DNA of 44,632 nucleotides, taken from the NCBI GenBank assembly GCA_031490075.1, contig GCA_031490075.1_4354.1. One strand, written 5' to 3'. Position numbers and translations under genes: made by a program. The notes beneath the pieces were generated by a model. The model saw nothing but the letters and a program-made list of their open reading frames with translations. It had not been told where the DNA came from and ran no database searches. Below, in pieces: positions 8,377 through 29,342 of the stretch (position 1 is its first letter; each line of letters starts with the position of its first letter). This DNA is from a phage.

Positions 8377-9614
8377 TTCTAAAAGAACGAGGCGGCAATA
8401 ATGATGTACACGCCTTACTGTCACCGTCAGGCGCTAAAAAGTGGCTGTCATGCGCTGCGTCGCTGGCGTGTGAAAAAGATATCCCTAACACGTCGGGTAA
8501 AGCCGCGGTATTAGGAACCGCCATGCACACCATAGCTGAGGTCCATCTCAACGCCTATATCCGCGGCACTGCGTTGCCGTTGGAGCGTGAAGTCGGCGCT
8601 TACGTACTGGATGAAGGCAAAGGTCAGATTAAGGCGCTAATCAGCCCGATGAAAGGCGCGGTACTGATTACGGCGGACATGATTGAGCAGGTGCGCAAGT
8701 ACACCGACTACTGCAAAGCGATTATAGACGTAGCGACTTACGCCAAGCTGGAAATGCGTGTCAATCTTACTGAGGTATTGCATCCGGGGTATGAAGGCGT
8801 TGAGACGTTCGGAACCGCTGACCTCGTTGCTGTCCAGGAACTGGCAAACACTGACGAGCACATGCTCATTATCGGCGACCTGAAAACCGGGCGGCATCGC
8901 ATCGAAGCGAAAGAAAACAAGCAGCTTATGCTTTACGCTCTCGGTGTTTATCGTCGACTCAAGAGACGTTATAACATAACAACCGTTCGTCTGGTCATCT
9001 TCCAGCCTTACGCTGGGGGCGCGACAGAGTGGGACATCTCGGTTGAAGGACTGGAACTGTTCGCTAAGTTCGCACAGAAACGCGCGCTGTTAGCGCTTGA
9101 TGCGTATTTCCGTGGCAAGAAGAACCTGAAAGCGTCGGACTTCAAGCCATCGGTAGATGGTTGTCAGTGGTGCCGGTTCTCTGAACAATGCGCTGCGCGT
9201 ACAAAGACGGTTAATTCTGTACTGGCGGAAGAACTGGAGGACGACTTTGCGCTGGAACTGACGCCTGAACAACTCGTAGCTGAGTATGAGAAGTTGCCGT
9301 TGTTGCGCCAGCACATCGACAAGGTTGAGAAAGCGATGGCGGCCTCGTTGCATTCCGGTAAGAAAGTGCCGGGGTACAAGCTGGTTGAAGGCCGCCCGGG
9401 TAATCGTGCGTGGGAAGATGCAGAGAAAGTGGCTGGCAAGTATGGCATAGCGCTAATGAAGCAAGTGCTCATGACGCCAACCGAAGCGGTTAAAGTCATA
9501 CCGGAAGAAGAACTGAAAGACTTCATTACCCGTAAGCCAGGCGCACCATGTGTTGCAACGGCAGACGACAAACGTCCTGAGTGGAATAGGGTAACAGAGG
9601 AGGATTTAGAATGA
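8373..9614 (+). CDS. PD-(D/E)XK exonuclease, Cas4-like
   Basis: GDLKTGR and QLMLYAL motifs; N-terminal Cys plus C-terminal CQWCRFSEQC (C-x2-C-x5-C) typical of the Cas4/AddB-type Fe-S nuclease domain. Start placed at ATG 8373; the longest ORF starts at GTG 8358. Confidence 0.75.
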   Translation: MILKERGGNNDVHALLSPSGAKKWLSCAASLACEKDIPNTSGKAAVLGTAMHTIAEVHLNAYIRGTALPLEREVGAYVLDEGKGQIKALISPMKGAVLITADMIEQVRKYTDYCKAIIDVATYAKLEMRVNLTEVLHPGYEGVETFGTADLVAVQELANTDEHMLIIGDLKTGRHRIEAKENKQLMLYALGVYRRLKRRYNITTVRLVIFQPYAGGATEWDISVEGLELFAKFAQKRALLALDAYFRGKKNLKASDFKPSVDGCQWCRFSEQCAARTKTVNSVLAEELEDDFALELTPEQLVAEYEKLPLLRQHIDKVEKAMAASLHSGKKVPGYKLVEGRPGNRAWEDAEKVAGKYGIALMKQVLMTPTEAVKVIPEEELKDFITRKPGAPCVATADDKRPEWNRVTEEDLE

Positions 9615-9814
9615 TTCAAGTAAATGAAATGCCCACAGATAAAGATTTTGTGATGATATGGCGCTGGGGCGGTTATATCCATTCGGAATCGTTTACGTTC
9701 CTGAACGGCACGATGGTGCGATACAACCATGTGGAGGATGAATTCGAACCCGTTGATATGAATGATTTCGAGAACATAGTCCGTATTGCGAAATTTTATT
9801 TGACACCTGAATAG
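9611..9814 (+). CDS. Hypothetical protein
   Basis: ATGA-coupled to the nuclease gene. Confidence 0.4.
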   Translation: MIQVNEMPTDKDFVMIWRWGGYIHSESFTFLNGTMVRYNHVEDEFEPVDMNDFENIVRIAKFYLTPE

Positions 9815-9828
9815 TTAGCTATTATAGT
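9800..9828 (+). promoter_or_regulatory. Sigma70-like promoter with embedded palindrome (TTGACA-N17-TATAGT)
   Basis: TTGACA, 17-bp spacer, TATAGT; AATAG-N4-CTATT at 9810-9823. Confidence 0.65.
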
Positions 9829-9896
9829 TCTAATCACTGACCGGGCAGCTTCCCGGAGTAAACTTTGAAATATAAACTGAAAAGCGAGAAATCACG

Positions 9897-10523
9897 ATGG
9901 GTATTAAACTGAATCTGCGTAAAGTAAACACTGCTTGGGTTAACGTATTCGAACGCGAAAAAGACCGTGAAAACGATGATGGCTCAATCACTAAAGGTCA
10001 GTACAGCGCAACCATTATCCTGCCGTCCGACCATGCTCAAATCGATGCGCTCTACGACACTGTTTACGCTGTAGTTGAAGAAGCGTTGGGTGCTGCCGCT
10101 GCCGAGAAATGGATGAAGTCCAACTACGGCGAAGGTAAGCACATGGATAAATGCGCGATTAAAGACATTGCCGAGCGCGACAATCCATTTGAAGACTTCC
10201 CGGAGGGCTTCTACTTCAAAGCGAAAGCACAAAAACAGCCGCTGATTGTAACCTCTAAAAAAGGTGAGACTCAGGTAGAACAGGACTTCAACGTAGACGG
10301 CGAACAGATTGAAGGTGAACAGGTTTACAGCGGATGCTTAGCTAACGTAAGCGTTGAAATCTGGTTCAGCCAGAAATACAAAGTCCTCGGCGTTAACCTG
10401 CTGGCGATTAAATACGTTGGCGAAGGCAAAGCGTTCGGCGGTTCTAAAGTCGCTGCGAGCGTCAATGACCTGGAAGACGACGAAGAAGATGAAGCACCGC
10501 GCCGCGAACGTCGTCGCCGCTAA
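9897..10523 (+). CDS. Putative ssDNA-binding protein (DUF2815-like)
   Basis: Position between a Cas4-like nuclease and a family A polymerase is a recurrent phage module; acidic C-terminal region. Family call is from memory and tentative. Confidence 0.45.
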   Translation: MGIKLNLRKVNTAWVNVFEREKDRENDDGSITKGQYSATIILPSDHAQIDALYDTVYAVVEEALGAAAAEKWMKSNYGEGKHMDKCAIKDIAERDNPFEDFPEGFYFKAKAQKQPLIVTSKKGETQVEQDFNVDGEQIEGEQVYSGCLANVSVEIWFSQKYKVLGVNLLAIKYVGEGKAFGGSKVAASVNDLEDDEEDEAPRRERRRR

Positions 10524-10542
10524 TATCTTAATCAATTTAACT

Positions 10543-10565
10543 AAGGCCCTTCATTGGGCCTTTTT
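10543..10565 (+). terminator. Rho-independent terminator
   Basis: AAGGCCC-TTCATT-GGGCCTT followed by TTTTT. Confidence 0.6.
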
Positions 10566-10734
10566 ACTAAGGGTCGAAAATAATGTTTTTCTGTAAACAC
10601 GTTTATCGCTATATGAAACCGCTTCCTTGGTACGCGGATGAGTACCGGGCCGGGTACAGGCATGTGTGGATTTGCCGTGATTGTATGAAAATAAGACTCA
10701 GCGAAACGAAGGCACTGGATTTAAGGAAAAAGAA

Positions 10735-12906
10735 ATGAGCTACTTATACCTGGACTTTGAAACATTCTCCGAAGCCGATTTAAAGAAAGTCGGTTCCTAC
10801 GCTTACGCCGAACACCCAACCACCGAAGTGCTTATCTGCACATATGCTTTTGACGACGAGCCTGTACAGGTATGGGATTGCACAGACGGCAGCGACATGC
10901 CGGGGGATTTGCACCGCGCACTGCGCCGCCTGGTGAAGCCGAACAGTCGTATTAAGACGGTGTGGCACAACGGCTCAATGTTCGACAGGCTCATCATGAA
11001 ACACTGCTGGGGCTTTGATATTCCCGTAAGCAACACCATTGATACGATGATTTGGGCGTTTCGTCACGCGCTGCCGGGTTCACTTGACGCATTGTGCGAA
11101 GTGCTTGGCGTGTCCGCCGACAACGCGAAAGACAAACGAGGCAAGGCGCTGATTCAGCGTTTCTCTAAACCGACGCCGAAGAACTACAAAATCCGCCGCT
11201 ACACCGCTGAAACACATCCCGATGAGTGGGCGCTGTTCATCAAGTATGCCGTTAGCGACATTACTGCGATGCGTGAAGTCTTCCATAAGCTGCCGCGGTG
11301 GGGTAACTCGGAGTTCGAAGACCGTGTACTGGAACTGGACCAGTTAATCAATGACCGTGGGTTTAAGGTTGACGTCGCGCTGGCGGAAGCTGCAATTGAA
11401 GCTGTGGAGAAACACAAGGCGCAGTTACAGGAAGAAGCCCAACGCAAATACGGCGGCTCACTTACCGGTAAAGACTTTCTGCCTATTCTGCGTGAACTCG
11501 CCCCCGCGCACCGCATCCACAATGCACAGAAGTCGACGCTGAATGACCTTCTTGCTGATGATGATTTACCGGACGACGCCCGGATGATTATCGAAATGCG
11601 CCTCGGGGCCGCGTCAACAGCGTCCACGAAATATAACCCGCTGCTGTTAGGCCGCTCGTCGGACGACCGACGCCGCGGTTGTATCCAGTACGGTGGGGCA
11701 AAGCGTACGTTACGGTTCGCGGGTAAAGGCTTCCAGCCACAGAACCTGGCGCGTGGGTACTATCACGATGATGAACTGGATAAAGGCATTTCAGCGTTAC
11801 TTAAGGGCCGGGCGCACCGCCGATTTGACGTAGCCAAGCTGACGGCATCGACCGTTCGTAGCTGCATCATACCGGAAGCAGGGCATAAGTTTGTCGTTGC
11901 CGATTACTCTAACGTCGAAGGCCGCGGTCTTGCGTGGCTGGCGGGTGAAGACGATTTAATCGAAGTATTTGTAAACGGGGTTGATGTGTATAAGAAACTC
12001 GCATCAACGGTGTTCAATGTTGCATATGAAGCCGTAACAAAGGACCAAAGACAAATAGCCAAAGCAATGGTTCTGGGACTCGGCTACGCGGGGGGCGTCG
12101 GTGCTTTCGTCACGTTTGCTAAAAACTTAGGTCTTGATTTGAATGACATGACTAACACTTTAGACGGTACATTCCCGGACCATATTTGGGCCGCTACCGC
12201 ACGCGGATACGAATGGGCGCGTATTCAGGAAGCCAAGCGACCACCACGTCCTGGTGAAAAAGATGACCGACCCTCATATATCCTTGATAAGAAAGTTTGG
12301 CGCACCTGTGACGCTTTAAAGCGCATGTACCGGGAAGCTAATCCTGCAATAGTCCAATTCTGGCGCGATATTGAAGACGCAGCTATGGCAGCAATCCGTA
12401 ATCCGGGGAAAGAGTTCACCGCTGGCCCTCGCGGGGTTAAGTTTTCTCGCAACGTAGAAACAGACAACAACGGCAACAAAGTCGCTGGTTGGTGGTTGCG
12501 CATGACGTTGCCGTCAGGTCGCGTTATGTCATACCCGGGCGTCGGATTAAGTGTGTCGAAAGAGACAGACGAAGATGGAAAGGTGTCTACTAACGTGCGC
12601 ATCAAGTACCAGGGCGAAAACCAGTTAACCCGGCAGTGGGGCTTCCAGTACACCTACTCTGGTAAACTGGTGGAAAACTGCACTCAGGCGTTGTGCCGTG
12701 ATTTGCTGGCCAACGCGCTGCTGAACGTAGAAGCAAACGGTTATCCAATTGTACTTCATGTCCACGATGAGATTATCTGCGAAACTCCAGATACGCCGGA
12801 ATACAATGTCGCAGAGCTTGAGCGATTGATGTGCGAATTACCAGAATGGGCGGAGGGGTTCCCTCTTGTAGCGGAAGGTCAGGAGTTAAAACGCTATGCT
12901 AAGTAA
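10735..12906 (+). CDS. DNA polymerase, family A, with 3'-5' exonuclease domain
   Basis: LDFETFS (exonuclease motif), DYSNVEGRGLAW (motif A), RQIAKAMVLGLGYAGG (motif B), VHDEI (motif C). ATG at 10735 with AAGGAAAAAG upstream; the longest ORF begins at TTG 10681. Confidence 0.9.
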   Translation: MSYLYLDFETFSEADLKKVGSYAYAEHPTTEVLICTYAFDDEPVQVWDCTDGSDMPGDLHRALRRLVKPNSRIKTVWHNGSMFDRLIMKHCWGFDIPVSNTIDTMIWAFRHALPGSLDALCEVLGVSADNAKDKRGKALIQRFSKPTPKNYKIRRYTAETHPDEWALFIKYAVSDITAMREVFHKLPRWGNSEFEDRVLELDQLINDRGFKVDVALAEAAIEAVEKHKAQLQEEAQRKYGGSLTGKDFLPILRELAPAHRIHNAQKSTLNDLLADDDLPDDARMIIEMRLGAASTASTKYNPLLLGRSSDDRRRGCIQYGGAKRTLRFAGKGFQPQNLARGYYHDDELDKGISALLKGRAHRRFDVAKLTASTVRSCIIPEAGHKFVVADYSNVEGRGLAWLAGEDDLIEVFVNGVDVYKKLASTVFNVAYEAVTKDQRQIAKAMVLGLGYAGGVGAFVTFAKNLGLDLNDMTNTLDGTFPDHIWAATARGYEWARIQEAKRPPRPGEKDDRPSYILDKKVWRTCDALKRMYREANPAIVQFWRDIEDAAMAAIRNPGKEFTAGPRGVKFSRNVETDNNGNKVAGWWLRMTLPSGRVMSYPGVGLSVSKETDEDGKVSTNVRIKYQGENQLTRQWGFQYTYSGKLVENCTQALCRDLLANALLNVEANGYPIVLHVHDEIICETPDTPEYNVAELERLMCELPEWAEGFPLVAEGQELKRYAK

Positions 12907-13027
12907 ACTGATTATCGCGGTACTGGCGGGATTTGCCGCAGGTGTCTACTGTCACGAGGGTCAATACGGCATGATGGTTGCCATATTGGGCATGTTCATC
13001 GCAATTTATCTGTGGGTGCTGGAATGA
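12896..13027 (+). CDS. Small hydrophobic peptide (43 aa)
   Basis: First of a chain of ATGA-coupled small ORFs leading into the VRR-NUC gene; below the 60-aa cutoff of the ORF track. Confidence 0.35.
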   Translation: MLSKLIIAVLAGFAAGVYCHEGQYGMMVAILGMFIAIYLWVLE

Positions 13028-13113
13028 AAATTTACCGGTTCTACGAAGAAGACTGTCGAATCTGCCCGCGCTGCGGTATTGAGCATACCAAACGTGAGGG
13101 GTGCGTGTTATGA
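13024..13113 (+). CDS. Small zinc-ribbon-like peptide (29 aa)
   Basis: CRICPRC...C motif; ATGA-coupled on both sides. Confidence 0.3.
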   Translation: MKIYRFYEEDCRICPRCGIEHTKREGCVL

Positions 13114-13262
13114 GAATGTTTGTATTCGGGTCGATAGTAACCATGCTCGCACTGTTACTCGGTGCGGGAATAGCTGCTATGTTCTGTTACGGCCTGTTCT
13201 TTCAGTTTGCCGGTGTTGCCCTTCTAGGCGGGGCTTTCCTTACCTGGATGCCGCGGTCATGA
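13110..13262 (+). CDS. Small hydrophobic peptide (50 aa)
   Basis: ATGA-coupled on both sides; predicted membrane helices. Confidence 0.35.
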   Translation: MRMFVFGSIVTMLALLLGAGIAAMFCYGLFFQFAGVALLGGAFLTWMPRS

Positions 13263-13543
13263 CTAAAGAGGGCCGCATCCAGAAATACGCAAAAGAGCGA
13301 TTTGAGGCCCTTGGGGGCCTCGTTCGTAAACTTTCCTACGAGGGGCGTTCCGGCGCTCCCGACCTGCTGGTAATTCTCCCTGGCGGCATCGTCTGGTTCG
13401 TCGAGGTGAAGAAAGACGAAAGCACGAAGCCTGACCCGCACCAGTTACGAGAGCACGAGCGGATGCGTAAGCGTGGTGCAAATGTTTTTGTAGTTGGTTC
13501 GTTCAAACAGGTTGACACCCTAATAGCGAACTATTATAGTTAG
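13259..13543 (+). CDS. VRR-NUC domain nuclease
   Basis: PDLLVIL...VWFVEVKK matches the PD-(D/E)xK core of VRR-NUC; size about 95 aa fits the domain. The longest ORF (from 13079) overlaps the coupled small ORFs. Confidence 0.7.
   Translation: MTKEGRIQKYAKERFEALGGLVRKLSYEGRSGAPDLLVILPGGIVWFVEVKKDESTKPDPHQLREHERMRKRGANVFVVGSFKQVDTLIANYYS
13512..13540 (+). promoter_or_regulatory. Sigma70-like promoter with embedded palindrome (TTGACA-N17-TATAGT)
   Basis: TTGACA, 17-bp spacer, TATAGT; AATAG-N4-CTATT at 13522-13535. Confidence 0.65.
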
Positions 13544-13573
13544 CCATACACCAACAATATAAGGAATTGAGAA

Positions 13574-13765
13574 ATGAAACACGAATATGACCGCAAGCCA
13601 GCACGTGACATCGTACCTGGCGACATGATTTTCAACGTTAAGACCCGCCAGCCTGTTGCCGTTGATACGGTGTTCGTCGAGTCGAACGGTAAACTGGTTA
13701 TCGAAGATGTAACTGGTAACGTTACGGCGTTCGGGCGTAAAGAGCTGGTGCTGGTGGCAAAATGA
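13574..13765 (+). CDS. Hypothetical protein
   Basis: AAGGA upstream; ATGA-coupled to the next gene. Confidence 0.45.
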   Translation: MKHEYDRKPARDIVPGDMIFNVKTRQPVAVDTVFVESNGKLVIEDVTGNVTAFGRKELVLVAK

Positions 13766-14445
13766 TTGTCTGGTCATTGTTTGACGGTTCGGGCCTTATG
13801 GCCCAACCGTGGGCAGAAGCGGGCCATACTTGCTATTGTTTCAACTACGACGGTGCCGACCACGGCGACTACGCGCGATTGGGCGCAAAAGTTGAACACG
13901 AGAACATCCACTATATAAACGCGTGGATTGATAATAAGTTCGACTTCGAGGTTTCGCCAGATATTATTTTTGCGTTCCCTCCTTGCACAGATTTAGCCGT
14001 TAGTGGTGCGGCGCATTTCGAAACGAAGCGTAAGAAGAACCCAACGTTTCAGGTAGAGGCTGTTATCACATGCAAAGTGGCGGCACGCCTGGCTAAAAGG
14101 TATAACGTACCTTATATGATTGAGAACCCAGTTAGCGTCCTCTCGTCTTTGTGGCGTAAGCCCGATTATGTGTTCAATCCTTACGAATACGGCGGCTATC
14201 TACCGGAAGACGATACGCATCCAATGTTCCCTGAATACATAAAACCCCGAGACGCGTACCCTAAAAAGACATGTCTTTGGACGGGTAATGGTTTCGTAAT
14301 GCCGGTTAAGTCAGGTGTTGCCGTGGGTGATGGGTATTCTGACCAGCACAACAAACTTGGCGGTAAATCAGTGCGGACAAAAACAATCCGCAGCCTTACT
14401 CCTCGGGGTTTCGCAAAAGCAGTTTACGAGGCTAATCATGTCTAA
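13762..14445 (+). CDS. Short C5-cytosine methyltransferase-like protein
   Basis: SLFDGSG (motif I-like), FPPCTDLAVSG (PC motif with Thr in place of the usual Gln), MIENP (ENV-like); only 227 aa, so no room for a normal target recognition domain. Confidence 0.55.
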   Translation: MIVWSLFDGSGLMAQPWAEAGHTCYCFNYDGADHGDYARLGAKVEHENIHYINAWIDNKFDFEVSPDIIFAFPPCTDLAVSGAAHFETKRKKNPTFQVEAVITCKVAARLAKRYNVPYMIENPVSVLSSLWRKPDYVFNPYEYGGYLPEDDTHPMFPEYIKPRDAYPKKTCLWTGNGFVMPVKSGVAVGDGYSDQHNKLGGKSVRTKTIRSLTPRGFAKAVYEANHV

Positions 14446-15862
14446 GTTTCAAAGACGCGAGTACCAGAAGCTCATGACCTCGTTCATGCTGCAACACCCG
14501 CGCTGTAATATCTGGTGCGGAATGGGGGGAGGTAAAACCTCCTCCACTATGTGGGTGCTCAACCGCCTGTTCCGCAACGGGCAGCTTACGGAAGAGGACC
14601 GCGTGTTAATCCTTGCCCCGTTACGTGTTGCGTCCGGTACGTGGCCCGCTGAACAAGAGAAATGGCAATTCCCTTGTCTGCGTGTCGTAGATGCAACTGG
14701 TTCGGAGAAGCGCCGCATCGCAGCGCTGGAGTCAGATGCTAACGTGGTGTGCACTAACTACGAAGTTATCGAGTGGCTAATTGACTACTACGGCAAAGAC
14801 GACTGGCCTTTTACGGTTATCGTTGCCGATGAAAGCACGAAGCTTAAATCGTTCCGCAGCCGTTCGGGTGGTAGCAAGCGGGCAAAGGCGCTCAGCAAGG
14901 TTGCGTTCGGAAAGGTTAAGCGTTTCATCAACCTGACAGGCACACCGTCACCAAACGGCCTCAAAGACTTGTGGGGTCAGAACTGGTTTATCGACGCTGG
15001 CGAGCGCCTCGGCTCTTCGTACACAGCATTCACCGACCGCTGGTTTAACTCGGTACAGAAAGGTAAATCGGCTATGGCCCGCGAGTATCATGCACGACCG
15101 GGTGCGGATAATGAGATTCATCAGAAGATGAAAGACATCAGCCTGACCATAGACCCTGCCGAGTGGTTTGGTTGTGAAGCGCCTGTTATCGTACCGGTGG
15201 AAATAGACCTGCCGAAGAAAGCGCGTCAGGCGTACATAGATATGGAGGAGAAGTTATTCGCAGAACTGGAGAGCGGGGAAGTTGAAGCGGCTAACGCTGC
15301 GGCGAAGACCTCAAAGTGCTTGCAGATTGCATCTGGTGCTGTATATGTATCCGGGCCAGACGGCGAAGCAACCAAAGAATGGGAGAAAGTGCACGACACG
15401 AAACTGGATGCGCTCGAGTCGATTGTTGAGGAGTTGCAGGGTGCGCCGTTGCTGGTAGCCTATCAGTTTAAACACGAACTGGAGCGTATCCTTAAGCGAT
15501 TCCCACAGGCACAGGCGTTCGCCAAAGGCGCCAGGGGGAACAAGCAGATGGAAGCGTGGAACCGTGGGGAAATCGAGATTTTATGCGTGCATCCTGCGTC
15601 AGCCGGGCATGGTTTGAATTTACAGGACGGGGGTCATCATCTGGCGTTCATCTCGCAAGGCTGGAACCTTGAGCACTATTTGCAGGTTGTTGAGCGCATA
15701 GGCCCAGTCCGCCAGAAACAGGCGGGTCACGAGCGCCCGGTGTTCCTTTATCACATCGTTGCTAAAGACACTCTGGACGAGGTTGTCGCCGCGCGTACCG
15801 ACGAGAAGAAATCGGTACAGGAAGAGTTGCTTAATTACATGAAGAGACGAGGTAAGAAATGA
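14438..15862 (+). CDS. Superfamily 2 helicase (SNF2/DEAD-like)
   Basis: Walker A GMGGGKTSS, DExx box VADEST, C-terminal helicase motifs; ATG at 14438 overlaps the upstream stop. Confidence 0.8.
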   Translation: MSKFQRREYQKLMTSFMLQHPRCNIWCGMGGGKTSSTMWVLNRLFRNGQLTEEDRVLILAPLRVASGTWPAEQEKWQFPCLRVVDATGSEKRRIAALESDANVVCTNYEVIEWLIDYYGKDDWPFTVIVADESTKLKSFRSRSGGSKRAKALSKVAFGKVKRFINLTGTPSPNGLKDLWGQNWFIDAGERLGSSYTAFTDRWFNSVQKGKSAMAREYHARPGADNEIHQKMKDISLTIDPAEWFGCEAPVIVPVEIDLPKKARQAYIDMEEKLFAELESGEVEAANAAAKTSKCLQIASGAVYVSGPDGEATKEWEKVHDTKLDALESIVEELQGAPLLVAYQFKHELERILKRFPQAQAFAKGARGNKQMEAWNRGEIEILCVHPASAGHGLNLQDGGHHLAFISQGWNLEHYLQVVERIGPVRQKQAGHERPVFLYHIVAKDTLDEVVAARTDEKKSVQEELLNYMKRRGKK

Positions 15863-16374
15863 TGGATTTCGAAGAGTTTCTACTTAAAGCTCATCTGCTG
15901 GCGCGTGGGTTTGACGCTGACCGTCTCCAGGTAGTCTTAGCCCCTGGAGTAGCTACGTTTTACCTGTGGGGGTTTGACGGTAGGCTTCGCGGATACCAGC
16001 ATTACAAACCACATGCCGAAAAGAACTGTAAAAACCCTAAAGACGCGCGGTACTTTACCAGAACAACAAGGCCGTGTTTATGGGGGCTTGAGTATTTGCC
16101 GGAAAGCGGGGTGGTATTTGTTACCGAAAGCATATTCAAAGCCGTAGCCTTGATGAATTGCGGGTTCAATGCTGTAAGCGCACTGGGGTCAAATATATCA
16201 ACAGACCTACGGCAGCAAATGTCACTTTTGCCGTATGACTGGGTGTGCGCTGGCGACAATGATAAAGCTGGATTAAAGTTCAGCAAAACATTCACCAGAG
16301 GATTTGTATCTAACGACCTTGATGAACTTTGTGAAGAAGAAATAACGTATCTTGCGAGGAAATTTACCAGATGA
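15859..16374 (+). CDS. Toprim domain protein (primase-like)
   Basis: VFVTESIFKAV ... AGDNDKAG resemble Toprim acidic motifs; ATGA-coupled to the helicase. Confidence 0.55.
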   Translation: MMDFEEFLLKAHLLARGFDADRLQVVLAPGVATFYLWGFDGRLRGYQHYKPHAEKNCKNPKDARYFTRTTRPCLWGLEYLPESGVVFVTESIFKAVALMNCGFNAVSALGSNISTDLRQQMSLLPYDWVCAGDNDKAGLKFSKTFTRGFVSNDLDELCEEEITYLARKFTR

Positions 16375-16508
16375 ACATCATAGCCCCAATTCCGGCATTG
16401 CAAAAACGTATCAAGGAACTCGAAGAAGAGGTTCTGCGGCTACGTCAGCAAAGAGACGCCGCTAATGCGCAACTGGCGTTTGTACTGGAGAAGTTATCAG
16501 AAGAGTAG
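16371..16508 (+). CDS. Small coiled-coil peptide (45 aa)
   Basis: ATGA-coupled; last gene before the convergent terminator. Confidence 0.3.
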   Translation: MNIIAPIPALQKRIKELEEEVLRLRQQRDAANAQLAFVLEKLSEE

Positions 16509-16514
16509 AGAAAA

Positions 16515-16540
16515 GGCCCCGTTTGGGGCCTTGTTTATTT
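16515..16540. terminator. Bidirectional rho-independent terminator between early and late modules
   Basis: GGCCCC-GTTT-GGGGCC flanked by AAAA on one side and TTGTTTATTT on the other. Confidence 0.7.
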
Positions 16541-27172: not shown

Positions 27173-28303
27173 ATGGCCCGGAAGAAAATAACCGACGAAC
27201 AGTTGCAGGAAGAATTGAACGCCGGTATGAAGAATGTAGATATCGCCCGTAAATACGGCATCTCAGACCGCGTAATTCGTATCCGTAAAGCGAAGCTGGC
27301 TAAGAAAGGCGTGGGCCACGGGCGCGACGTTAGCCACCTTGTGCCAGACGGCTACAAGATTAAAGGAACGTCGTCACTTGTGGACGAGTTCGGCAACACT
27401 AAGTTGCAATGGGTTAAGACTGATACCGACGCCGAACGTCAGGTTGAATTGATGAAAGCCGTAATAGAGGGCATGAAGTCAGAGATTACGCCCGTTGCGC
27501 CTGTTAAAGCGGCGCGCGCCAAACGTGACGACAAGCTACTCAATCTTTACACTGTATCTGATTTCCATCTCGGTATGCTGGCATGGGCCGATGAGAGCGG
27601 CGACGACTGGGACATGAAGATTGCAGAAGACCTGTTCTCTCGGTGGTTCGACGCGGCGTTTCAGAAAGCACCGGATGCAGGAACAGGAGTTATTAACCTG
27701 CTTGGGGACTTCGCACACTTCGATAGTCTTGATGCCGTTACCCCCGAGTAGCGCCATGTATTAGATGCGGATACTCGCTATCAGAAACTGGTACGTTACA
27801 TGATTCGTATGGTCCGCCGTGTTGTTGATATGGCGCTGGTTAAGCATCACACAGTAAAACTTTTAATCGTTCAAGGTAACCACGACCCTGTTGGCTCCGT
27901 ATGGCTTGCTGAAATGTTCACGGTTTTATACTCAAACGACAGCCGAGTGATTGTTGATACGTCGCCGGATGTTTACAAGATGGTGCAACACGGCAAAACG
28001 ACGCTGTTCTTCCATCACGGGCATAAAGCACGATTCGACGCTATCGAACCGGTTATGATTGCCAAGTTCCGTAAAGCGTTCGGCGAGAGTGTTTACAGCT
28101 ACGCCCACGTAGGCCATCTGCACCACCAGAAGATTGTAGAAAGCCGTAACATGATTGTTGAGCAACACCGCACCTTAGCGGCTAAAGACGCCTACGCCTC
28201 TCGCGGCGGATGGATGTCGGGCCGCAGTGCAAATGTAATTACTTATAGCGCCGAATATGGCGAGGTCGCACGTTTAACTATTTCACCGGAGATGCTGGGA
28301 TGA
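27173..28303 (+). CDS. Calcineurin-like metallophosphoesterase with N-terminal HTH-like region, interrupted by an in-frame TAG at 27749-27751
   Basis: Track ORFs 27173..27751 and 27800..28303 are in the same frame with a single TAG between them. Motifs SDFHLG and LLGDFAHFD lie upstream of the stop; QGNHD, HHGH and GHLHH lie downstream. Confidence 0.65.
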
Positions 28304-28788
28304 AAGATATTGTAATTTTCGATTTAGACGGGACATTGGCCGACGGTACCCATCGCTTACACCTGTTACCAAAAGATAACTACGGAGAAACGTGGGCGTG
28401 GAAGCCATTTAACATGGCCTGCAAAGATGACGCTCCGATATACGACAATATCCATTTGTGTAGCGTACTGTGGCATTCCGGACTTACTATAATTATCCTT
28501 ACCGGGCGAAGTGATGACGCTGAGGAGGAGACTCGCGAATGGTTACGAGAGAATAACGTTAGGTTTGACACGCTAATCATGCGCAGCAAACACGACAACA
28601 GAAAAGACATCGTAATTAAAGAAGAGGTGTTGCGTGCTTTCGGACTGGAAAGAATCTTGTGTGCGTTCGACGACTCTCCAGCGGTAATAAAGCATTTCCG
28701 TGACCTCGGCATAACCGCACACGCAGTTACCGAATACGACTGTAACGGGAACTCTACACACTTAAAACCACACGGGAGCGATAAATAA
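28300..28788 (+). CDS. HAD-superfamily phosphatase (nucleotidase or polynucleotide 3'-phosphatase-like)
   Basis: N-terminal FDLDGTL is the HAD motif I; start overlaps the upstream stop. Confidence 0.7.
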   Translation: MKDIVIFDLDGTLADGTHRLHLLPKDNYGETWAWKPFNMACKDDAPIYDNIHLCSVLWHSGLTIIILTGRSDDAEEETREWLRENNVRFDTLIMRSKHDNRKDIVIKEEVLRAFGLERILCAFDDSPAVIKHFRDLGITAHAVTEYDCNGNSTHLKPHGSDK

Positions 28789-29342
28789 TGGCTAAGGTAA
28801 TTATTCTTAATGGCCCTGCGGGTTGCGGGAAAGACACGCTTGCTATGGCGCTGGTAGAAATGGGCTTTGCGAAAGGAACTACCAGTTTCAAGAATCCAAT
28901 GTTCAATATTGCTTTGGCAGCGTTAGGCCAGGATGCTTACCACGAATTTCTCGACGGCTACGACGACCGGGCGCGGAAAGAAAAACCAGAGGGTTTTCTT
29001 AATGGGTTGTCCCGCCGCCAGTTAATGATTGCCATTTCTGAGCAATTCATTAAACCGGTATTCGGCGATGATTATTTCGGTAAGTATCTTGCTGAAAACT
29101 TGCCTGACGGCGACGAAGTTTTTGTAGTGTCCGATGGTGGATTCGCCAGTGAAGTTGCCCCTATCGTCGCCGCGGGGCATGACGTGCGAATCGTCCGCCT
29201 CCATCGTGACGGCTATACGTTCATCTGCGATAGCCGTGGCTATCTGTACGATGTTAGTGGTGTAAAAGATTACGACACCTACATCATACCGGGTGACGTT
29301 AAATCGAACGTTATAGACATTGCTTTAAAATTAGGTTTGTAA
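28788..29342 (+). CDS. P-loop kinase (dNMP kinase-like)
   Basis: N-terminal VIILNGPAGCGKDT Walker A with the GKDT variant, which I recall from T4-type dNMP kinases. Confidence 0.55.
   Translation: MAKVIILNGPAGCGKDTLAMALVEMGFAKGTTSFKNPMFNIALAALGQDAYHEFLDGYDDRARKEKPEGFLNGLSRRQLMIAISEQFIKPVFGDDYFGKYLAENLPDGDEVFVVSDGGFASEVAPIVAAGHDVRIVRLHRDGYTFICDSRGYLYDVSGVKDYDTYIIPGDVKSNVIDIALKLGL

Follow-up and report, generated by a model that had tools for sequence, protein, structure and literature searches.

The question raised by this locus is whether a protein of only 227 amino acids (aa), with atypical signature motifs, is a working DNA cytosine-C5 methyltransferase. The gene lies at 13762..14445 (+ strand) of a 44,632-nucleotide (nt) phage sequence (contig GCA_031490075.1_4354.1 of NCBI GenBank assembly GCA_031490075.1), which was analysed over its whole length and is referred to here as the window; the window is a Kagunavirus (Guernseyvirinae) phage. 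An earlier interpretation made from the letters alone (the sequence-only reading) had described the product as either a minimal cytosine methylase giving anti-restriction protection or an enzyme acting on nucleotides or hypermodified bases. The open reading frame (ORF) proved to be real, with an ATG start on the + strand. By analogy with a characterised ortholog, we infer that it encodes an active S-adenosylmethionine (SAM)-dependent DNA cytosine-C5 methyltransferase of the phage 'mini-Dcm' family (phrog_757), with a probability of about 0.82. The minimal-methylase proposal was supported by the predicted fold, by invariant catalytic residues and by a 57%-identical ortholog that raises 5-methylcytosine (5mC). 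Nothing sets the gene apart within its family, which is very large, consists of unusually small phage C5 methyltransferases and has been annotated before; the finding is real, not new.

In the PHROG profile search the protein matched phrog_757 ('DNA methyltransferase') with E 1.7e-87 over residues 1-226. A search at E ≤ 0.001 recovered more than 7,797 homologs, and among the matches listed (120) all were 210-252 aa long. The family comprises 2,022 clusters at 50% identity, nearly all of 200-260 aa. Because the whole phrog_757 family is uniformly short, the length of 227 aa is the family norm and not a truncation. Matches by tblastn were present in 1,553 of 50,697 phage records. Sampled carriers were T1-like Drexlerviridae, Dhillonvirus-like siphoviruses of 44-45 kb, Webervirus and large (135-170 kb) myoviruses of E. 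coli, Salmonella and Enterobacter; more distant tblastn matches came from Vibrio, Xanthomonas and Rhizobium phages.

For conservation analysis, 79 cluster representatives with 35-62% identity to the query were aligned (alignment A3, to which all counts out of 79 refer). An 80-sequence profile built from viral contigs was used as HhaI-like reference, and the sequences of HhaI and DNMT3A were checked against the PDB (100% match for both). The three motifs named in the sequence-only reading were all present and conserved across the 79 representatives. Motif I, the SAM-binding loop SLFDGSG (residues 5-11; 13774..13794, +), aligned with FAGLGG of HhaI by hhalign and with LSLFDGIATG of DNMT3A; F/Y7 and G11 were conserved, and S/T10 was found in 74/79. 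Motif IV, FPPCTDL (residues 72-78; 13975..13995, +), carries the catalytic Cys75 (nt 13984-13986) and aligned with the PC of HhaI and DNMT3A (C75 79/79, T76 71/79). The Thr following this Cys had been singled out as a departure from a near-invariant Gln. Gln was indeed invariant in the 80 HhaI-like enzymes, and Thr is unusual here, but a residue other than Gln has precedent, DNMT3A reading PCND. Motif VI, ENP (residues 121-123; 14122..14130, +), contains Glu121, the cytosine-N3 protonating residue, and aligned with ENV of HhaI; its third residue is Pro, not Val (E121 and P123 79/79, N122 77/79).

The C-terminal half is more divergent in its motifs. A motif VIII-like segment, KKTCLW (residues 168-173; 14263..14280, +), coincides with a strand predicted at residues 170-175 and is highly conserved (K168 78/79, T170 77/79, W173 79/79); its resemblance to RARYFWGN of DNMT3A was seen by eye only. 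A motif IX-like segment, RSLTPRGF (residues 210-217; 14389..14412, +), starts the C-terminal helix, and the protein ends 10 residues later (R210 78/79, G216 77/79; P214 also conserved). In hhalign comparisons with the HhaI-like profile, residues 1-128 were placed on HhaI 12-126 (motifs I-VI) with a weak E of 0.013, and residues 193-219 (IRSLTPRGFAK) on HhaI 252-281 (TRKLHPRECAR, motif IX) with a weak E of 0.089. Both weak alignments were collinear, and the pairings were FDGSG/FAGLGG, PPCT/FPCQ and ENP/ENV. Against the single HhaI or DNMT3A sequences only the N-terminal half was aligned. A likeness by eye between SVRTKTIRS (residues 203-211) and the DNMT3A loop KVRTITTRS (829-837) in the target recognition domain (TRD) was dismissed as coincidence; V204 and R205 are unconserved and hhalign puts the segment on motif IX.

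Across alignment A3, residues C75, E121, P123, P140, Y166, W173 and P181 were invariant, and all are present in the window protein. At least 90% conservation was found for K168, T170, R210, P214, G216 and N122, and K168, T170 and R210 are present in the window protein. The motifs are not a product of chance, as the catalytic residues are invariant across 79 divergent relatives. In comparison with the JSSK01 homolog (96% amino-acid identity; annotated 'DNA cytosine methyltransferase'), the synonymous rate dS was 0.39 and the nonsynonymous rate dN 0.017. The resulting dN/dS of 0.044 demonstrates strong purifying selection; the value for the adjacent helicase gene was 0.041.

For structure prediction, an AlphaFold2 model was generated from a 71-sequence alignment and reached a predicted local distance difference test score (pLDDT) of 91.7 and a predicted template modelling score of 0.90; pLDDT was only 30.7 for the single-sequence model. 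The predicted model has the three-dimensional fold of C5-methyltransferases. Its closest solved fold was the DNMT3 catalytic domain (e.g. PDB 6u8p, 6f57), and M.MpeI, M.HaeIII and EhMeth were also named in the structure comparison. Structure prediction had been proposed as a check of the earlier interpretation; the fold agreed, and placement in an unrelated Rossmann-fold family was not seen. In the model, the region between motifs VIII and IX consists of a loop and a single short helix, and no motif VII helix is seen. The stretch between the motif VIII-like KKT (168) and the motif IX-like segment (210) is 42 residues long, compared with 71 in DNMT3A and 109 in M.HhaI, which bears out the earlier remark that a conventional TRD has no room. 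As modelled, the protein is a stripped-down C5-methyltransferase core with motifs I-VI, a variant motif VIII, a putative motif IX and about 35 residues in the place of the TRD. It departs from several classical motif definitions but retains the C5-methyltransferase fold together with the Cys and Glu of the active site.

DNMT3A likewise has no Gln in motif IV, reads SLFDG in motif I and has a spacing of 46 residues from the Cys to ENV; these shared features fit its position as best structural match. DNMT3A and DNMT3B differ in that they are eukaryotic, are only 13-17% identical to the window protein and possess motif X, a TRD of about 70 residues and a DNMT3L-assisted tetramer. With M.HhaI and M.HaeIII (PF00145) the protein shares the fold, the order of motifs I-VI and, by a weak match, IX, and presumably the chemistry. 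It is about 100 residues shorter than these enzymes and has no motif X, and PCT, ENP and KK stand where PCQ, ENV and RxR were invariant in the 80 HhaI-like sequences. Position by position, Q82, R163 and R165, invariant in that set, are represented by Thr, Lys and Lys/Thr, and the equally invariant N304 is absent.

The experimental evidence for activity comes from the phage K42 counterpart of an ortholog, bas06_0055 of BASEL phage KarlJaspers/Bas06 (QXV82308.1; 711 bp), which is annotated as 'Dcm-like C5 cytosine methyltransferase' and to which the window protein is 57% identical end to end (E 2e-97, 227 versus 236 aa). Phage K42, which is 95.4% identical to KarlJaspers/Bas06, was studied for its sensitivity to retron Ec86 (bioRxiv 10.1101/2023.08.16.553469). 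According to that study, 4/4 escape mutants had lesions in or just 5' of the 711-bp 'Dcm-like' gene, and cells expressing the gene suffered toxicity if they carried the retron but not otherwise. Expression also raised 5mC on the Ec86 multicopy single-stranded DNA (msDNA), as determined by liquid chromatography-mass spectrometry, whereas a C82A/E128A/K175A/K176A mutant produced neither toxicity nor a rise in 5mC (bioRxiv 10.1101/2023.08.16.553469). The four mutated residues correspond to C75, E121, K168 and K169 of the window protein (offset +7).

The two enzymes are alike in family, architecture, catalytic Cys, Glu and Lys-Lys and in the FNYD.ADHG motif II region. They differ in that the K42/KarlJaspers enzyme belongs to a Drexlerviridae phage and its gene lies among small hypothetical genes, not in a replication string; 43% of the residues differ, notably those of the 176-200 loop, a possible seat of specificity. 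E. coli Dcm is the functional model for the 'Dcm-like' annotations and for the retron study, in which a CCTGG site in the msDNA was required. With about twice the length, Dcm also possesses a large TRD. In msDNA methylation host Dcm did not take the place of the phage enzyme: dcm+ MG1655 contained poorly methylated msDNA before the phage enzyme was expressed. Changes of CC to AA, AC or CA in the CCTGG of the msDNA abolished defence (bioRxiv 10.1101/2023.08.16.553469). Since the msDNA was poorly methylated before its expression, the phage enzyme appears not to be simply redundant with Dcm. Tolerated expression in McrBC+ MG1655 argues against widespread RmC methylation (5mC after a purine).

Several observations weigh against an active DNA cytosine-C5 methyltransferase with an anti-restriction benefit. 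The Pfam DNA_methylase match was only 17.1 bits (cut-off 22; E 0.0039) and covered residues 3-100 only, and only 9/71 relatives matched this profile at E ≤ 0.01. The NCBIfam search of the protein gave no match, and no solved C5-methyltransferase was matched when the sequence and three family profiles (A1, A2, A3) were searched against the PDB. Motif VIII does not read Q-x-R-x-R; Y-P-K-K-T is found instead, with lysines for arginines. Motif X lines the SAM pocket in HhaI. No counterpart of it was detected by hhalign against HhaI 303-327, the protein ending 17 residues after the start of motif IX. CCWGG specificity of the K42 enzyme was assumed from E. coli Dcm, not mapped (bioRxiv 10.1101/2023.08.16.553469), and the source of the 5mC evidence is a preprint, later papers citing a peer-reviewed 'DNA methylation activates retron Ec86 filaments...'. 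As to benefit, the BASEL study found no simple link of these methyltransferase genes to restriction resistance in Drexlerviridae (PMC8594841), and BASEL Kagunavirus isolates were highly sensitive to restriction-modification systems (PMC11990801).

C5-methyltransferase chemistry is established, and the mechanism proposed for the window protein is derived from it. The target cytosine would be flipped out of the helix, and the Cys75 thiolate would attack C6 while Glu121 protonates N3. The methyl group would then pass to C5 from SAM, which would be held by the SLFDGSG loop, Asn28 and Asp57, and beta-elimination would free the enzyme. The motif VIII arginines hold the cytosine and the backbone, a role that Lys168 and Lys169 may fill here.

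How such an enzyme chooses its targets is a separate matter. The mini family may read DNA unlike any characterised C5-methyltransferase, as a DNMT3-like dimer or by acting on hairpins or on nascent DNA at replication forks, where specificity would be very short or would depend on structure; this is an unlikely prospect. It is raised by the roughly 35 residues available for a TRD, by the lack of motif X and by methylation of an msDNA stem-loop that host Dcm leaves largely unmethylated. If true, no smaller DNA C5-methyltransferase would be known, and recognition would follow a logic peculiar to this enzyme. In the comparison of the window with XY1, a Kagunavirus phage that lacks the gene, observed/expected (O/E) ratios of sequence motifs gave no hint of specificity (CCWGG 0.70 versus 0.74), and no C-containing motif differed. 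A related alternative is that the enzyme is active but has as its substrate single-stranded, hairpin or replication-fork DNA, or RNA as for Dnmt2, with little sequence specificity. It is considered improbable.

A catalytically dead relic or a non-enzymatic binder, e.g. a SAM sponge or a DNA-binding decoy, would agree with the score below the Pfam threshold, the missing motif X and motif VII helix and the Asn found for Asp at motif II. At this last position Asn is characteristic of the window protein's clade and Asp of the wider family; as this Asn and the DHG region also occur in the active Bas06/K42 ortholog, the exchange is no argument against activity. No relative examined departs from the catalytic Cys and Glu, the low dN/dS speaks for a constrained protein, and the catalytic-residue mutant of the K42 ortholog loses function. 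A dead protein is distinctly improbable.

A carboxymethyltransferase using carboxy-SAM (Cx-SAM) to form 5-carboxymethylcytosine, like phage CmoX, was also considered, a match to CmoX having suggested it. In CmoX, an Arg found in place of the motif X Asn is the basis of selectivity, and CmoA and CmoY accompany the enzyme (PMC12783734). SpCmoX (PDB 8yf3) is far longer (chain of 372 aa) and has a motif X with the Cx-SAM-binding Arg350. The window protein reads FPPC, not SPPC, and the phrog_757 family is without the motif X counterpart that would have to supply the Arg. The only candidate basic position, 219, is unconserved (K14, R14, Q10, I10, L9, E8 of 79), no cmoA or cmoY-like ligase was found among the window genes scanned, and the K42 ortholog demonstrably raises 5mC; a CmoX-like activity is very improbable.

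The genomic setting of the gene bears on how it is expressed and inherited. The replication block (13000-16500) is 97% identical to that of Escherichia phage vB_EcoS-22664BS2 and matched 454 phage records, mostly of Salmonella and Escherichia phages. Those inspected were Guernseyvirinae (Kagunavirus), and one was filed under Autographiviridae. This record, OR594183.1 (phage vB_EcoM_SHAK7858), has the taxonomy line Autographiviridae; Studiervirinae; Kayfunavirus. It is probably misclassified, as its replication block is 95.8% identical to that of the Kagunavirus window and has the same gene order.

Directly upstream of the methyltransferase gene is a 63-aa ORF (13574..13765, +; phrog_4879, function not assigned), whose stop overlaps the methyltransferase start via ATGA. 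It is preceded by a VRR-NUC nuclease gene (13259..13543, +; 94 aa from ATG 13259, the most likely start), for which the Pfam VRR_NUC match was weak and the PHROG matches were phrog_93 (endonuclease, 2.8e-31) and phrog_5702 (Holliday junction resolvase, 1.3e-19). Downstream lies an SNF2-type helicase gene (14438..15862, +; Pfam SNF2-rel_dom 6.7e-13, phrog_62 1.3e-166), whose ATG at 14438 overlaps the methyltransferase stop by 8 nt (ATGTCTAA). The gene had been described as ATGA-coupled between the VRR-NUC gene and the helicase gene; an ATGA exists on the upstream side, but the partner there is the 63-aa ORF, the VRR-NUC gene not being directly adjacent, and the helicase junction is an overlap of another kind. 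A Toprim primase gene (15859..16374, +; Pfam Toprim_2, phrog_849 2.7e-48) continues the same co-directional string of overlapping genes.

A sigma-70-like promoter match (TTGACA-17-TATAGT, 11/12; 13512..13540, +) was found just 5' of the 63-aa ORF. It is a consensus match with a putative function, and the total of promoter-like matches in the region was not above the shuffled expectation. Identical hexamers and spacing (11/12) also occur at 9800-9828 (+), 5' of a gene for a gp2.5-like single-stranded DNA-binding protein. An intrinsic-terminator-like hairpin (16513..16532, +; 8-bp stem with 6 G-C pairs, T-rich tail), again a pattern match of putative function, follows a 45-aa ORF. The 63-aa ORF, the methyltransferase, helicase and primase genes and the 45-aa ORF plausibly form one transcription unit between promoter match and hairpin.

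The methyltransferase gene is absent from XY1 and SHAK7858, in which the flanks are 93-96% identical and the 63-aa ORF is directly followed by the helicase gene. In XY1 no trace of the methyltransferase was found by tblastn, the 63-aa ORF being kept at 98% and the helicase at 99%. The XY1 junction reads ...GGCAAAATGAGTAAGTTTCAAAG, with the stop of the 63-aa ORF overlapping the helicase start (ATGA); the window junctions read ...GGCAAAATGATTGTC...[methyltransferase]...AATCATGTCTAAGTTTCAAAG, and the cassette boundaries are exact. As the junctions of window and XY1 match exactly, the cassette takes over the ATG that serves as helicase start in relatives and recreates a coupled helicase start. The 63-aa ORF is always ATGA-coupled to the next gene, the methyltransferase in the window and the helicase in XY1. 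A near-full-length copy of the methyltransferase gene was present in about 76 records, compared with the 454 that match the flanking replication block; carriers are a minority of relatives and the gene is an accessory cassette.

Gene neighbourhoods are quite different in KarlJaspers, a Rhizobium phage and GZ7, and in GZ7 the homolog overlaps a Dam-like gene. Fusions among relatives join the family to a D12 N6-adenine DNA methyltransferase (563 aa), an HNH nuclease (348 aa) and a helicase-containing protein of 1,397 aa (members P0373, P0378 and BFVD A0A6J5SE15_1). The D12 fusion and the Dam-like overlap would be supporting links to DNA methylation.

With the presence/absence pattern at hand, nucleotide-level action or a hypermodification pathway can be weighed. 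The sequence-only reading had pointed to a deoxynucleoside monophosphate (dNMP) kinase-like gene, which is present (28788..29342; phrog_139) and adjoins a polynucleotide-kinase-like gene (28300..28788). Both kinase genes are retained in XY1 (87% and 93%, respectively), which has no methyltransferase, and they lie 14 kb from the methyltransferase gene; they are core genes unlinked to it. ThyA-like enzymes modify dCMP or dUMP, and the fold found here is that of a DNA C5-methyltransferase, not ThyA-like. Window genes scanned against PHROGs or Pfam, with many small ORFs outside the scan, comprised replication, repair, kinase and lysis genes and no base-modification gene, whether for a glycosyl-, amino- or hydroxymethyl-transferase. 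A nucleotide or hypermodified-base substrate is hardly credible, and the modified-base pathway through the dNMP kinase was rejected on the XY1 pattern.

For a DNA cytosine-C5 methyltransferase encoded in this position, the cassette would probably be transcribed with the replication genes, and methylation of phage DNA would accompany its synthesis. Protection from 5mC-sensitive restriction is the probable gain, set against a probable vulnerability to 5mC-dependent restriction and to sensors such as retron Ec86. Such a trade-off would account for the presence of the gene in only a minority of relatives. An anti-restriction role is plausible; it is the conventional interpretation and fits an accessory gene co-expressed with replication.

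Restriction sites in the window show a further pattern. GATC is nearly absent from 1-44632, with 6 sites compared with about 150 expected under a maximal-order Markov model (O/E 0.04; XY1, 9 versus 159). Several palindromes of 6 bp are likewise strongly avoided (observed versus expected: GAGCTC 0 versus 3.2, GGTACC 1 versus 10.2, CTGCAG 2 versus 10.5, CAGCTG 2 versus 11.0), and CTAG has an O/E of 0.35. These counts suggest that the phage depends to a large extent on site avoidance.

A SbcD/calcineurin-like 'DNA repair exonuclease' gene (phrog_704; 27173-28303, +) is interrupted by one in-frame TAG (27749-27751), giving two ORFs in one frame, of 192 and 167 aa. In 22664BS2, the closest relative, a single nt is different within the 301 nt around the TAG and one protein is annotated there, and an intact 'DNA repair exonuclease' is annotated in BASEL phage Bas71. 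The TAG could be a nonsense mutation, a sequencing error or a site of readthrough. In XY1, positions 9462-11195 contain a 384-aa 'recombination endonuclease subunit' that shares just 59% identity with the split gene of the window, and a separate 187-aa calcineurin-like ORF is 95% identical in residues 58-187 to the C-terminal half of that window gene. Judged from these alignments, the nuclease locus appears mosaic or rearranged between close relatives.

The locus itself has little discovery value, many deposited relatives being annotated and one family member having been studied experimentally. Of wider use is the family as a whole, a minimal C5-methyltransferase of about 225 residues without TRD or motif X. 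Near-identical Kagunavirus genomes with and without the cassette provide a ready-made isogenic comparison. For the phage, the gene marks a probable producer of 5mC-containing DNA. This is relevant to host range, as 5mC is a barrier to some restriction enzymes but attracts those of the McrBC type and can set off retron Ec86.

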